Both the position numbers and the translations under genes were made by a program. The notes under the pieces are model-generated. The model saw only the letters and a program-made list of their open reading frames with translations, made no database searches and was not told the origin of the DNA. Source: Monosiga brevicollis MX1 (Eukaryota). Taken from it: a stretch of DNA of 64,000 nucleotides. Position 1 is the first letter of the stretch. Each line of letters starts with the position of its first letter. The stretch is taken from assembly GCF_000002865.3 (NCBI RefSeq), contig NW_001865039.1:2212438-2276437 (forward strand), in the 5' to 3' direction. Positions 37,501 to 43,590 of this stretch are shown here, piece after piece.

Positions 37501-37924
37501 TTAGGGTGTGGAAGCATCCGCAGCTGCATTGATGTCAGAGTCCGTGCCGGGTGCAGTGTCACTGGAAGATTGCCGAGAAGCGAGTTGACTTGCATCAGGT
37601 GTTATACAGCTCTCAAGGAATTTGACCAGCCTAAGATGATTACCCAGATCGAAAACAGAAGGCGGAAAATGATTGTTTCTACCAAGATCTTAGCCGTTTC
37701 ATTTGATCCGTCGGTAAAAAAAGTACATGCAATGGGAGCATGCTGATCTGGTAGCGCAAGACAGCGGGCAAGGTCTTTTTTGCGCACGTACTGGCGGAAT
37801 TGAAGGTCTTGAAAACAAGCTTGATTATAGTTGAGGAAAAAGTCGGGCTACGCAGACAGATGTGCAAAAATCAGCGTATTTTTGAAAACTTCGACCACTT
37901 CGCCATCAACACGAAACAGCTGAC

Positions 37925-38019
<95 letters not shown>

Positions 38020-41000
38020 CACCCCCCCCAAAAAAAAAAGCAAGTGAGCAAAGCGAACCTGGTCGGTGTTGGTCACAAATTCCAGCGATTTGTTGTTTGA
38101 ACTATTCTTGTCAATGTTGACGATGCCATAGTGCTGAATGTTGAGTTTCTTGGTCAACTCTGCTAGTTTGCTACAAAGGAAGTGCTGATGAGGGGCAAAT
38201 GCTTTTCAAAAGAAAAACCAAACAAATAAAAAACAAAAAACAAGAAAAAAAAAACCCCCGTCACCTTTTCTCACCTGGCATTATCGTTGACAAACCAGAC
38301 AGCAAATTCATATGACTGCACGTCGCCTTCTGGCATAGAGTCAAACCTGCAAGTATTGGATTGGAGATGGATGTCTTGAGAGGATATGCCGGGAGTGGAG
38401 AAGGATGTATGTGCGGATAGATATTGCTGGACGAACGAACAAACGACGTACACTCGACGGAAACACAAGCGGTTCCGGAGATGCGAGGCCTTGGTCCGGA
38501 GAAATGCATCAAAAGGCATGATCACATTCTCGACGTCTTCCGGATTGCAAAAGACAACAACATCACGCCGATGCATCTTGCTTTCGGCGAATAAGGGATC
38601 CTATCAATTTGGAGCACGAGGTACGAGAACAGATGCTAGATCAACCTGATGCGCGGTTTTCGACATGCTTTCTGAACGCGTGTGCAAATGAGCGTCTTAC
38701 CACATTGCTTGCCCTGCTAGCAGCAATGGCAGAGGGGTGGACATCACGACTGGCCGTCAGCACCTATCATAAGCCAATCAGGTACCACGGTGTTCATAGT
38801 CAGCGTTCAAACTTTTGATATGCACTCCAATTCAGAAAAACCCACCTCTTTGCAAAACGCTTCAATGCTGGCAGCACCACCATCATTGTTTTGCTCTGAA
38901 AAAGAAAAATCCTGATACTCGGACTAAATGCGACATGCATATGATGAGGCACAAGGTTACCTCGGGAGGACTTGCTGATAGGCACCATGCATGACGGGGT
39001 ATGTGGGCATGGCGCTGGCCATACCGGCAAAATTAGGCGTGTCTCATCATCAACAGGCTCGTTCACGGGGTCTAAAACAAACACCATAAACTTTTTGCTA
39101 CGAGCATTTTCAGCTTCCGCACGACAGTACTGGGATTTGGACCAGCCCGTCGAGAAAAGTACCACAAAGATGTGGCAATACGAAATCTGTGAGGTTACAA
39201 CTTTGCGCCAGTCCTCGCTTCTATACAAATGGAGGAAAAGCAGGTTATGTTTGCTCAGTTTGGCCAAACCCGGCCCCGTATAGTGCACACACAGCGCAGC
39301 AAGTGGCGTCGCAATTCACAAACCCCTGAATTTCGCGGTCCACAAAGAAGCTCACGCCAAGCTTATCCAACTGACGGAGAGACCTATGAGAGACCTCGGA
39401 CTATGAGAGCCGGATAGAACATTTTGAATTGACATCAAGGCATTTCCGCTGCATGACATACGCGTTCACTGTGTCGTCGTGACACTCGTGCTTGTAGCTG
39501 ATGAAGACGTCTTTGAGTCGTGCTGTGACACACCGCCGGTGACAGTGAGCCAGTCAGCCCTCCAGACTCTGCCGTTGATTGCGATGAGCTCAAGGCTCCA
39601 AGGATTCGTCCCCACAAACCTGCTTTGCGTAGTTTTTCAATGACTTTTGCACCTTTGCTCGTGCTTGCACTCAGTTGTTCTACGCCAGTCAAAGTGCAGT
39701 CAAATGGCAACAGGAGACATGAGACCAGAAAGTTACAAGAAAGAAAGAAAGAAGAATACCACCTCCAGGTCGCGATTGATTTGCAGCAATCAGTAGCTTG
39801 AGCAAACAGGTCATGACCGACATCATCTGTTGCACAGAAAGTCCTACCAGGCGTTTTGCTGTCAGCATCCTTGCTAGTGCTTCCCAGAAGCTGAGAAATG
39901 GATAGAACAATTTTTTGTTGTTGTGGCGTCCATTGAGAGTCAGCTGCATTGTCGGGGGAGGACACAGGGTGCCTGTCTTGGTGAAGGGCAGTTGTGCCTC
40001 GAAGGGCATCGACAATGATGGACACGGCTTGATCTGGCTCCTGCCAAGGGGCCAACACGGCGGCGTGCAAGATGTTGCTATGCAAACAACCGAGCGTTGA
40101 GAGACAGCTCTGTTTCTCAAAAGAGCATGGCCAAGCGCTGCCAGCGTGAGGCGAACAAACATGTACAGTTAGTTGCATGTACTTACCGCGACCCGCGCCC
40201 GAGTTCCTTGTCGCTAGCCGATGGTAAGTGAGCGCCCCAATCTCGGCCACACCAGCCATTCCAGTTGGCAATGATATTGTGACAGGCTCCTTGGGTGGCA
40301 CCAAACAGGAAATGGTCCTGAGCAAGTCAGGCGGGGGTGGGTGGGTCAGATCAAGACGCGAACATGGCGGTAATCCTCCGATATCTGCTGACAGAAAGCA
40401 CGGGGTACCTCTCGATCGGTGCCAGAGAGAATCTCGCAAAAATGCGGGGCATTTTCCTCGGCATCGGGATGACAGAGAGCAGTGTCAATGACGTCACATG
40501 TAAAACGCCCCAAGTCGAGGGTGCCAGGCTCGCTCCGCATTTGAAAGTAATGGAAGCAGTAAGCCACTAAAACTTGAACCAAAGGGGTTTTAGACTCTGC
40601 AACCGAGTTGGCAAAAGCATTGGGGGCATCTGCTGTGGCCAAAGGAGACTTTTTGGGATTCTGCGAACCTACGATCATTTCAGCCGAGGTTTCCCAGACC
40701 CAAACGTGAGCCAACTTTTCAGTCAATAATACTCATCCCTAGTAGACAGCTCAGACATTCGAAAGACAACTTCAAGGCCATTCAACGCACTAAAAATCCG
40801 CCCGGTCAAATGCTTAAACTCGGCCAAATCCTTTAGTTCAGATGAGTCGGCGTGCTCATAGAGTAGTCGGAGAAAGCACAGAGCATCGGCAATTTCAGCG
40901 GCTTCGGAATCTTTTGCATTGCGTGCGTAAGATAGCACAGTCCGTCCATATCGATCCTTTTGCTTGAGCTGCTGCAAGAGCGACTCATGGTCAAGGCTGG

Positions 41001-43590
41001 CGTAGGCTCGGACGATGGAGCGGGCTCGGGTCCAAGCACCGGCGAAAACACTCAAGTGCAGATCTGACAGATGTTGATAATTGCAAGGCGCTGGTTCGAG
41101 GTGCGTCACTTGTTGGTTTGATAGCACTGCCTTTGCCCAAGAGATATCCAAAGTTTTGAGCCTCAGGTCATCGCTGGGACCGAGCGGAAAGTCATCGTTG
41201 ATGTCAAGATCCAGTTGTGTGCTGGTATCATGCAAGAAGGATTGAACTTCTTCCTTATTTGGCATGGCGGCCTGCGCTGCTGCATCCTGTCAACGAGGAA
41301 GGTTGCTGGCGTGAGTGGGTGATCGCGGATGTGCGTGTGAGCACTTTTTAATCGCCACGCGTATGGACAAACCTCGATACAAATCGCGGCGCACACATTG
41401 CCCTGAATGATGCTTTGTACCATGCTGAGACCGGCAGCCATGCCAGCCACAAGCCCACCAGTCAGAGCATCGGCAGCGCCAACAACACCACCAAAACGAC
41501 GTGACTTGAAAGAGGGTACGACTTGCAGATCCACGACCGATCGGGAAGAACTTGAAGCTTGAGTCGTGCCATTGCTGAGCGAGTCAAACTCCACACTCAT
41601 GGTGCCAAAGCCGGAAACAAACACGATGCGGCGAAGTTGTGGCGACTGATTCTGCTCCCGGTCACCATAGCATGTACGTTAGATGTATTTGACGGTTGGT
41701 TATTGAGAAAGAAGACAGAAGAAGAGAAAAAGGAAGAAAAAGGAAGAAAAAAAAAAGTAAAAAAAGTAAAAAAAGTATATAAAAAAAAAAAAAAAAAAAA
41801 TAGGCGATGAGCGAAGACAGGGGCAGGGAGAACATGTTCGGCCTTTTCCACAAGAGTGCACATGCTGCATGTGTTTGCGTACCGCAATTGCGCAAGCATA
41901 TTCAAAAGCTCGCACAAGGTTGGTCACTGGGTTCGACTTGGACTCGCTACGGATCGGTAGACATGGTGAATCATTGAAGAGTAACAAAAAGCCCGCGGGC
42001 GAGGCGACGGGCACGCGTGTGGGTCTTTGGTTCTCGATCTACGTACTCTGGTGGGTTGCAAAGTTCGTTGCGCATCCTCATGAGCTCGTATTCGTTCAGA
42101 ATGACGGTATCAGCATACTCGAGCAAGCAGATGCCATCATCACGGTAGGGAGCATATTTCACATAGACGGGAATGTCCATCTCGCGTGCCAAGCGACAGG
42201 CCTAGACAAAAGCGGCCCAAGGAGGGTCCAGACCAAGCTCAGCGCTGCAGTGTGTGTATGGGACGTGCAAGACCTGGCCTGAAAAGAAAGCAAAAACAGG
42301 AGGCTATCAAGCTAGAGGATACTTTGGGATCACAAACCTGAAGTACAACGTTGGCTTCGGGGGAGACACTAGCGCTCGGAGCCATGGCCTCGAGCTGTGT
42401 TAGAAAAACAATGTTCTTGTCTTGAGCTTTACAGCGCTCCAACTCAGCTTTGAGTCCAGCAAACTCTTTGTCCATGGTCATCTTGTGGTTGACTCCGGCG
42501 TAGGAACAGGTATATTTGCCCTCGGTGCCTGCTGTGCCCCCTCGGCCGCCCTGCCACCCAGCAAGACAACGATGCGCGTCGGGAGAGTACTGAAAGTGAA
42601 TAAAATTGCGCATGACAGCGTGCACGCCAAGACGCCGGCAGACTACCTTGCAGTTGATGATCAAAGCATTGCCGGTATCGTAATGACCAGCTTCGTCGCC
42701 TTCTTCGTCGGCTCCCATCTAATGGAAAAATCAGTCGTCCAAGGATTGAATTGAGCAACGCCTTTGGCTTTGATGGCGTATAAAGTTGAGTGACACACCT
42801 CAGTGATACAGCTCTTCAAGAATCCACCACAGGCTTGGATGGCGGTGTATACCACAGGGCGGAGCTCATCATTACCCATGCGACCCACAAAAAAGGTATG
42901 GACGCCCAAGCGAGCCGAGGCCACGGCTTCATTGAGACCCTTGCCGCCGGGCTCGATCCGACTGTCATTGGCTGGGACACTGGTATTCAACTAAACGAGG
43001 TGATCAAGCTTTGTGAGGCGAGCGTTCCTCAGACACACACCAGGGGGTGCGATATCAGATCATGAACGACATCAATCGAGCTCAAACGTTGAAGGTCAGG
43101 TGAGAAGGAAGGACGGGAGAGGCGAGAGAGCCAGGAGAGCGTACGGTGGGCAGCTGTTGCACTTCAGCGATAATGTCAACGTTGATGCTGCCGAGGATGA
43201 TGACAGCGGATTTGGAATCTGCAGCAAGCTGCTCATAAGGCTCATCCAGGTCGTTTGAGGTGACAGAGGAGTTGAGGGACTTGCGAAGGCCTGTTTTCGG
43301 AAAAGATTGGCAGGAACATGGGCCAGGTCAGAGCATCGAGGGTTGATATGCGTAGATATAAACACGACTGATCAAGAGGAAGAGGGTACGGCACGAAAGC
43401 GAAGAGCCAGCACGTACTGAGGGTGCGGGCCACGGAAGATGCACTGGAGTTTCGCTGAGCCAAGGGGTAGAGTGAGCAGGTGAGAACCTGATGCTGCGCA
43501 CATAAACGGACGAGCGCATGGGGATCAGCCGGGAGGGCTCACCACAGCTAGGGCCGGTGAAGCGGCAGCGCTGCTATCGCGCACACTCAT
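37501..43590 (-). CDS. Putative ribokinase(PfkB)-ankyrin-TIR fusion protein, many exons
   Basis: ATG 43590. PfkB: VIILGSINVDIIAEVQQLP, PGGKGLNEAVASARLG, VGRMGND, ILNEYEL, GVVGAADALTGGL, AQAAMPNKEEVQSFL. ANK-like KDRYGRTVLSYA. TIR: DVFISYKHE...GVSFFVDREIQGSEDWRKVVTSQISYCHIFVVLFSTGWSKSQYCRAE. Predicted stop at 37501-37503. Confidence 0.72.
37927..38018. repeat. (CA)n microsatellite, intronic
   Basis: Directly visible. Confidence 0.97.

Follow-up and report, generated by a model that had tools for sequence, protein, structure and literature searches.

We describe here a locus on the minus strand of a 64,000-nucleotide (nt) window of contig NW_001865039.1 from Monosiga brevicollis MX1 (the window being the whole stretch of DNA analysed), in which exons for a PfkB (ribokinase-family) domain at 43.3-41.3 kb are followed by an ankyrin-like stretch and then by exons for a TIR domain at 39.5-38.9 kb. 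The window as a whole is eukaryotic nuclear DNA with ~52-58% G+C, GT-AG introns and long microsatellites. The PfkB domain and the ankyrin-like region share an exon, the locus is probably one gene of ~23 exons, and we put at roughly 45% the probability that it encodes a single protein of ~1,140-1,170 amino acids (aa) with the order PfkB-ankyrin-like-TIR.

The exon chain was built by hand and comprises 23-24 exons separated by introns of 49-231 nt; its product is 1,144-1,167 aa long, depending on how the tenth exon is joined to the eleventh (E10 and E11 in the lists below). Coding potential was expressed as a codon log-likelihood score (LLR) trained on six long open reading frames (ORFs) elsewhere in the window, by which the frame used in the model is the best of three in 22 of the 23 exons, the exception (E18) having since been corrected. 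Splice sites were scored with weight matrices derived from 15 introns between well-supported exons, and ranked as percentiles over the 413 GT and 390 AG sites of the locus. The Pfam scan covered 15 stop-to-stop minus-strand ORF pieces, so that its scores refer to single pieces or exons rather than to the spliced protein.

The PfkB part of the model is made up of nine exons:

E1, 43543-43590, minus strand: candidate start exon of the manual model, with its ATG at 43590 (donor weight-matrix score 5.1, 90th percentile; LLR 0.254)
E2, 43418-43493, minus strand: N-terminal leader exon, from the model (LLR 0.131)
E3, 43145-43290, minus strand: N-terminal PfkB strand, with GSINVD at 43175-43192 (LLR 0.465)
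E4, 42799-42990, minus strand: exon with the PfkB GGKGLN motif at 42931-42948 (Pfam PfkB, TIGR02152, PDB ribokinases and KDG kinase)
E5, 42647-42718, minus strand: PfkB exon, from the model (LLR 0.495)
E6, 42338-42589, minus strand: PfkB exon with TQLE at 42389-42400 and an insertion, from the model (LLR 0.254)
E7, 42047-42201, minus strand: PfkB exon with NEYE at 42085-42096 (Pfam PfkB profile positions 153-208, E 0.12; LLR 0.471)
E8, 41883-41946, minus strand: short PfkB exon, from the model (LLR 0.193)
E9, 41373-41651, minus strand: C-terminal lobe of PfkB, with GAAD at 41469-41480 (Pfam PfkB profile positions 241-291, E 1.1e-5)

A preliminary description of this DNA had named a PfkB/ribokinase domain, and this is borne out by Pfam, NCBIfam and PDB comparisons, with the segments in the right order on the minus strand. 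The Pfam profile PF00294 was found in 3 of the 15 ORF pieces, collinear with the profile: on 42664-42990 (E 1.2e-6; 28.6 bits, above the gathering cut-off of 25.8), on 41974-42201 (E 0.12) and on 41166-41678 (E 1.1e-5; 25.3 bits). The best-scoring family for E4 alone is the NCBIfam ribokinase model TIGR02152 (E 2.6e-9; 36.8 bits, where the whole-protein cut-off is 299.65), and PDB alignments of the exons agree in returning ribokinases and adenosine kinase (6ilr, 8cqx, 6znx, 3go6 and 1lii). The GGKGxN sugar-site motif is present, since PGGKGLNEAVASARLG aligns in the PDB search with PGGKGANQAVAIARLG of the ribokinases 8cqx and 6znx, and VIILGSINVDIIAEVQQLP in E3 aligned weakly (E 0.57) with residues 5-23 of the ribokinase 6ilr. 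The NxxE motif, NEYE, was placed by reading; its exon, E7, gave no PDB alignment and is covered solely by the Pfam match at E 0.12, and E6 scanned alone matched no profile. The 57-nt intron between E5 and E6 (42590-42646) is in frame and free of stops, so that its retention would put 19 extra residues into the PfkB domain, and the 231-nt intron between E8 and E9 holds a low-complexity tract (41718-41800) that is A-rich, that is, T-rich on the coding strand.

Judged by these motifs and alignments, the PfkB fold and most of its substrate-site motifs (GSINVD, GGKGxN, TQLE and a putative NxxE, NEYE) are present. In this family the C-terminal signature DTxGAGD carries the catalytic Asp, and NxxE is the Mg/phosphate site. 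Here the second signature is degenerate: GVVGAADALTGG aligns with DTNGAGDAFVGG of adenosine kinase 1lii (DTNGAGD in the kinase, GVVGAAD at the locus), with the catalytic Asp retained, D-T changed to V-V and a G changed to A. The locus shares with the RbsK/PfkB family the collinear segments, the GSINVD, GGKGxN and QLE motifs, a putative NxxE and the Asp of the GAxD anion-hole motif, and differs from it in the insertion in E6, in GVVGAAD for DTxGAGD and in a C-terminus that is longer by 190 aa or more. Because the sugar- and ATP-site motifs are kept but the second signature is degenerate, the domain resembles a module that binds a ligand or has weak activity more than it does a housekeeping ribokinase; word-index protein searches with two PfkB exon queries returned no close relative.

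The last PfkB helix is carried by the exon that also holds the ankyrin-like stretch:

E10, 40726-41286, minus strand: final helix of PfkB followed by a helical tail that holds one ankyrin-like unit (open frame; LLR 0.352)

As the preliminary description had it, E9 is spliced in phase 0 (CIE/DAAAQAAMPNKEEVQSFL) into this exon; the donor GAG/GTTTGT lies at 41372, the exon starts at 41286, and the ankyrin-like repeat that it claimed is seen as one unit, LLQQLKQKDRYGRTVLSYA, at 40924-40959. PfkB and the ankyrin-like region are certainly fused physically, because both lie in the ORF 40726-41286 and nothing but the strong E9/E10 junction is needed to connect them to the rest of the kinase domain. 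Unless it is spliced earlier, the E10 frame is open for 187 codons up to a TGA at 40725-40723, and the stretch that follows the last PfkB helix is ~160 residues long. A donor within the exon at 41039 (score 4.4) was rejected, as its use would remove the best-supported ankyrin-like unit.

Searched with phmmer against 1.84 billion representative proteins, E10 gave only 3 matches, the best two being bacterial-type ankyrin-repeat proteins (E 4.3e-10 and 1.3e-5), both on LLQQLKQKDRYGRTVLSYA, and the third a NACHT-LRR protein. A local hidden Markov model built from 17 repeats of the matched ankyrin proteins finds exactly one unit in the gene model, and Pfam finds no Ank family, either in the 15 ORF pieces at E<=1 or in E11-E13 at E<=0.01. 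On these comparisons 'ankyrin-like repeat' is a fair label, and we call the region ankyrin-like rather than an ankyrin domain (PF00023 / PF12796), for which an array of several 33-residue repeats would be expected. A single-sequence AlphaFold2 model of E10 alone was unusable (mean predicted local distance difference test score 38.3).

The TIR exons and the C-terminal part of the model lie further along the same strand:

E15, 39462-39522, minus strand: first TIR strand, with DVFISY at 39494-39511 (LLR 0.441)
E16, 39324-39383, minus strand: TIR exon, LDKLGVSFFVDREIQG (LLR 0.555)
E17, 39025-39220, minus strand: TIR core, with YCRAE at 39115-39129 (Pfam TIR_2, NCBIfam FxsC_Nterm; LLR 0.31)
E18, 38846-38923, minus strand: end of the TIR region, in the revised frame (LLR 0.489)
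E19, 38701-38763, minus strand: exon of the model (LLR 0.152)
E20, 38452-38600, minus strand: C-terminal region (LLR 0.347)
E21, 38275-38346, minus strand: exon of the model (LLR 0.517)
E22, 38059-38170, minus strand: exon of the model (LLR 0.52)
E23, 37683-37847, minus strand: last confident exon of the model, with an ambiguous end

On the ORF 38803-39315 the Pfam profile TIR_2 (PF13676) was matched over profile positions 36-93 of 122 (E 1.4e-4; 22.8 bits, where the cut-off is 28), and the TIR core also matched the TIR-like NCBIfam model FxsC_Nterm (E 7.8e-5). E15 gave a weak match of 18 residues on DVFISY to the PADLOC SAVED_TIR model (E 0.03), and the segments DVFISY, LGVSFFVDREIQG and STGWSKSQYCRAEAE follow one another, by reading, in the canonical TIR order. 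The TIR core ORF matched none of the PADLOC TIR models (Thoeris ThsB, CBASS/SAVED-TIR) at E<=0.1, and the core exon had 0 matches in the PDB search. The claim of a TIR domain stands on two profiles and two motifs, DVFISY and YCRAE, with a TIR_2 score that falls below the family's threshold. Of the profiles that had been expected, PF00294 passed its cut-off, PF13676 was matched beneath its own and Ank was absent; both domains for which a missing profile would have spoken against the proposal, PfkB and TIR, did yield a match, that of TIR being the sub-threshold one.

In plant TIRs the alpha-C motif is WCLxEL. The TIR-only and TNL TIR domains of plants share with the locus a first strand of the DVFISY type and a Cys at position -3 from the conserved Glu (YCRAE at the locus, placed by reading); they differ from it in that the core exon of the locus is too divergent for a PDB match and takes its best library names from TIR_2 and a bacterial FxsC-like family. 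No NB-ARC or LRR was detected at the locus, unlike in a plant TNL. According to passages of a review (PMC9153377), the alpha-C glutamate of plant TIRs, which has a neighbouring Cys, is needed for NAD+ hydrolysis, and the Cys-x-x-Glu spacing in YCRAE matches, at the level of sequence, this catalytic motif.

Two alternatives in the TIR region were discarded: the first frame chosen for E18, which scored an LLR of -0.079 and was replaced by 38923-38846 (0.489), and an extension of E17 to 38961 (-0.516). Some ~250-300 residues follow the TIR domain in the model without a family match; E20 has no family in Pfam, PADLOC or NCBIfam, E22 none in Pfam, and the region 38275-38600 (RRDVVVFCNPEDVENV ... 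YEFAVWFVNDNA) nothing in any of the three libraries, although it reads as an alternation of strands and helices and could represent a second, degenerate TIR- or flavodoxin-like fold. E23 ends either by reading through to a TAA at 37604-37602 or by a donor at 37791 leading to an exon from 37630 with a TAA at 37503-37501, and all candidate tails after it have an LLR near 0. If the last weak donor is unused, the frame continues over 37605-37682 into VETIIFRLLFSIWVIILGWSNSLRAV and then a stop; this hydrophobic stretch, with a codon score near zero, could serve as a tail anchor. A microsatellite, (CA)46, occupies 37927-38018 within the intron between E22 and E23.

Between the ankyrin-like exon and the first TIR strand the model places four exons:

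E11, 40409-40668, minus strand: coding exon (LLR 0.288)
E12, 40187-40317, minus strand: short exon, from the model (donor 8.6, 98th percentile; acceptor 6.5, 96th percentile; LLR 0.106)
E13, 39848-40077, minus strand: helical exon, possibly ankyrin-like (LLR 0.172)
E14, 39620-39679, minus strand: linker exon, from the model (donor 9.5, 99th percentile; acceptor 5.4, 93rd percentile; LLR 0.012)

E11 is clearly coding-like, a higher LLR being found in 2.1% of 512 ORFs of comparable length in the window, whereas E12, E13 and E14 have weaker coding scores (0.106, 0.172 and 0.012). In the ESM Atlas E11 returned noise only (up to 0.81), and the nearest named clusters for E13 mostly bear Ank, at 0.82-0.86, below the level that counts and so a lead only. 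The ORF frame of E15 has no ATG and must therefore be spliced to upstream exons; because of this, and because the central introns have strong splice signals and the exons are coding-like, E11-E14 are to be counted with the TIR part. The donors of their junctions rank at the 91st (E11/E12), 98th (E12/E13), 92nd (E13/E14) and 99th (E14/E15) percentiles, and the corresponding acceptors at the 96th, 77th, 93rd and 73rd. The central joins had been described as the least certain of the gene, which holds for the first of them, E10/E11, alone; those from E11/E12 to E14/E15 are strong.

A stop-free frame of 349 codons, much longer than expected by chance, runs over E13, E14 and the surrounding introns (39435-40484, minus strand). 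It is only partly explained by these two exons, and extends upstream over E12 into the 3' end of E11 in a different frame.

The preliminary description had also pointed out that phase-compatible GT-AG joins can be traced from the PfkB exons to the TIR exons. Such a chain does exist, yet its existence is at the level of chance and one of its donors, at 40790, is the weakest in the locus. When the central 1.3 kb was shuffled 200 times with dinucleotides preserved and searched by a dynamic program from E10 to E15, an open, phase-compatible GT-AG chain was found in 150 of the 200 shuffles. The coding-weighted score of the best E10-E15 chain is 49.2, against 28.4 +/- 7.5 in the shuffles, and was reached by 1 of the 200.

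How much space separates the genes around the locus bears on how it is read. On one side a plus-strand acyl-CoA dehydrogenase gene (exons 36482-37387) converges on the locus, and its last exon, 37244-37387, gave an Acyl-CoA_dh_1 match at E 6.3e-12; its stop is ~215 nt from the nearest candidate stop of the locus (3'-3'), which implies very short or overlapping 3' untranslated regions. On the other side a divergent DnaJ-like ORF, 44395-44619 on the plus strand (DnaJ match E 2.3e-4, below the cut-off), lies ~600 nt from the candidate ATG (5'-5'). The divergent promoter region common to the locus and the DnaJ-like gene contains a (TC)87 microsatellite at 43832-44005, ~240 nt upstream of the candidate ATG; like the (CA)46 tract, it is perfect or near-perfect.

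Whether PfkB and TIR lie in one polypeptide turns on a single interval:

40669-40790, minus strand: disputed interval between E10 and E11, the proposed intron, with the TGA at 40725-40723, a 44-nt spacer and an in-frame ATG at 40678-40676

The following results weigh against a single PfkB-ankyrin-like-TIR effector protein. The donor required at 40790 (TTA/GTGCGT) scores 0.2-0.6 (0.6 with exon-side bases counted), less than any of the 19 leave-one-out reference donors, of which the lowest scores 3.1, even if its intron-side bases taken by themselves are ordinary (83rd percentile). Nor do the alternatives at 40770, 40767 and 40756 (-1.7 to 1.8) come up to the reference donors. The 21 codons that lie past 40790 up to the TGA have an LLR of 0.374, which just 7.4% of 637 stop-free windows within other introns attain, while 515 in-frame exon windows average 0.354; as these codons are as coding-like as exons, coding seems to continue to the TGA. 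The E11 frame opens at 40732 and has an in-frame ATG 44 nt past that TGA. The open GT-AG chain is no proof of a fusion, because most shuffles give one. The tail of E10 has no significant similarity to E11-E13 (284-429 of 500 shuffles reach the score), E11-E13 are without a Pfam family match, and the sub-threshold TIR_2 score comes from the single scannable exon, the other TIR exons being too short alone. Kinase activity of the PfkB domain is doubtful because its second signature is degenerate. Finally, no orthologue of E10, E9 or the TIR core was found in word-index protein searches, and none in metagenome contig scans.

The features of the joint also define the strongest rival to the single protein, namely two abutting ORFs: a 615-aa PfkB and ankyrin-like protein, and a ~550-aa helical/ankyrin-like and TIR protein that starts from the ATG at 40678 (MIVGSQ...). 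We regard this arrangement as a serious contender, if somewhat short of an even chance. In its favour, the frame in the present assembly stops at a TGA with an in-frame ATG 44 nt on, no donor before the TGA falls in the range of the 19 reference donors, and the tail up to the stop is as coding-like as the exons; in addition, excerpts of PMC9153377 report ankyrin-TIR as a stand-alone architecture in oomycetes, and nuclear polycistronic mRNAs are known in green algae (PMC7896298, in part). Expression could rely on a single bicistronic mRNA, or on a separate start site for the second ORF within the final exon of the first gene, and the two products may still cooperate.

Set against this arrangement is the gap of only 44 nt from the end of the PfkB/ankyrin-like frame to the coding exon that follows, which leaves no room for a terminator and a promoter and is far below the ~215 and ~600 nt that separate the locus from its neighbours. 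The polycistronic genes of green algae, as they appear in the available part of PMC7896298, are small and closely spaced, and we consider leaky scanning past an upstream ORF of 615 codons with internal ATGs unlikely. The 22 codons upstream of E11 score positively in its own frame (LLR 0.218), a value reached by 15.9% of the 637 untranslated intron windows. In the single-protein reading, E10 and E11 would be joined by a weak GT-AG intron, for which the acceptor of the proposed 40790/40668 join scores 1.7 (76th percentile) and an acceptor at 40715 is poor, or they would be one exon broken by an indel in the assembly. The window contains three runs of N, namely 50 N at 2543-2592, 50 N at 49576-49625 and a single N at 49693, which are scaffold gaps, and this draft state of the assembly bears on a possible indel error at 40726-40732. 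Two further ways across the joint were rejected: an 18-nt intron at 40731-40714 would be far below the 49-231 nt of the other introns, and reading the TGA as sense does not help, since further stops follow in the same frame. Taken on its own, the presence of PfkB and TIR in one polypeptide, the premise on which the preliminary description had built its functional idea, stands at about even odds.

An improbable variant is that the fusion is truly broken, such that E10 and E11 were once one exon and a genuine 1-nt frameshift within ~40726-40732 truncates the protein after the ankyrin-like region, leaving the TIR part untranslated as a recent pseudogene or a strain-specific loss. The E10 frame is coding-like to its stop (0.374) and the E11 frame coding-like from 40732 (0.218), the two have a few bases in common, and this variant can do without good splice sites. 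An overlap of open frames across an intron is nothing special here, however, as it occurs in 13 of the 22 introns of the model, and in the downstream exons both the codon bias and the splice sites are still strong, which speaks against prolonged decay. Very unlikely is a mere adjacency without functional coupling, of a plain ribokinase with a lineage-specific tail and a TIR domain that is scaffold-type and non-catalytic or serves some unrelated pathway: true ribokinases (TIGR02152 and the PDB ribokinases) are indeed what the exons match best, not every TIR fold is an NADase in the account given in parts of PMC9153377, and without orthologues no conserved partnership is shown, but the PfkB domain is highly divergent with a degenerate second signature, unlike a housekeeping ribokinase, the TIR domain keeps its Cys-x-x-Glu, and independent regulation is improbable at a spacing of 44 nt.

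No paralogue of any part of the model was found within the window, an Rfam scan of 36000-45000 returned nothing, and no antisense gene is evident, the plus-strand ORFs in the locus having codon scores of -0.08 to 0.21. Two long ORFs of the window are free of introns, 20788-23574 on the plus strand (929 codons) and 4322-5503 on the minus strand (394 codons), neither of them with a Pfam family at E<=1e-5; with these two uninterrupted frames set against the ~23 introns at the locus, intron density in the window is very uneven.

The preliminary description did not recognise the architecture from any described system, and a PfkB-TIR fusion is likewise not described in the full-text literature searched, subscription-only papers and supplements lying outside that search. 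The nearest working analogue is SARM1, the animal ARM-SAM-TIR NADase, in which a helical-repeat domain that binds NAD-pathway metabolites controls the TIR NADase. By analogy, the locus would share with it an N-terminal helical-repeat, metabolite-binding region followed by a TIR domain with a catalytic glutamate; it differs in that a PfkB sugar-kinase fold would take the part of the ligand-binding module, in the ~250-300 further residues after the TIR domain, and in that Pfam found no ARM or SAM family in the 15 ORF pieces. The nearest described architecture is that of the oomycete ankyrin repeat-TIR proteins, noted as uncharacterised in PMC9153377, which likewise come from eukaryotic microbes and have helical/ankyrin-type repeats preceding the TIR domain; given that this architecture exists, an ankyrin-like region upstream of a TIR domain is to be expected. 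The locus differs in having one ankyrin-like unit and no Pfam Ank, and it also has PfkB upstream, which is not among the architectures in the excerpts of that review.

In the single-protein reading, the product would comprise, in order, a divergent PfkB domain, a helical region containing one or more ankyrin-like units, further helical exons, the TIR domain and the residues without a family. We take the TIR domain as the putative effector because it keeps the Glu and the neighbouring Cys that are linked to NAD+ hydrolysis, and suppose that it would cleave NAD+ upon self-association, with the helical ankyrin-like stretch acting as a spacer or an oligomerisation scaffold. The PfkB domain would serve to bind a ribose-type metabolite, perhaps also phosphorylating it, and thereby either gate the TIR domain or salvage ribose from TIR products, which is the kind of coupling, by ribose sensing or by processing of the TIR product, that the preliminary description had suggested. 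The mechanism we prefer is the first, in which occupancy of PfkB by a metabolite would gate TIR self-association, as in SARM1; in the second, the kinase would salvage ribose from the breakdown of ADP-ribose. One experimental link between a ribokinase and the action of a TIR NADase comes from yeast, where, as reported in PMC7188309, a bacterial TIR NADase became in part less toxic when the ribokinase RBK1 was over-expressed; this is so far the sole hint of a tie between ribose metabolism and TIR signalling. The full proposal, a single metabolite-gated TIR effector of ~1,150 aa with a catalytically competent TIR domain and a ribose-type ligand (ribose, ADP-ribose or a TIR product) whose binding or phosphorylation by PfkB switches or feeds the NADase, would be of an undescribed kind and is, on present evidence, unlikely.

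In bacteria, plants and animals alike, TIR domains act in immunity and cell death as effectors that cleave NAD+, and the systems differ in the module that controls them. If PfkB and TIR are two ORFs, they form an unusually tight gene pair, whose 44-nt spacing would suggest co-expression; if they are fused, the locus encodes a repeat-plus-TIR protein with a new N-terminal module. A sugar-kinase fold as the controller of a TIR domain would be a new control or salvage module, tying ribose metabolism to TIR signalling.

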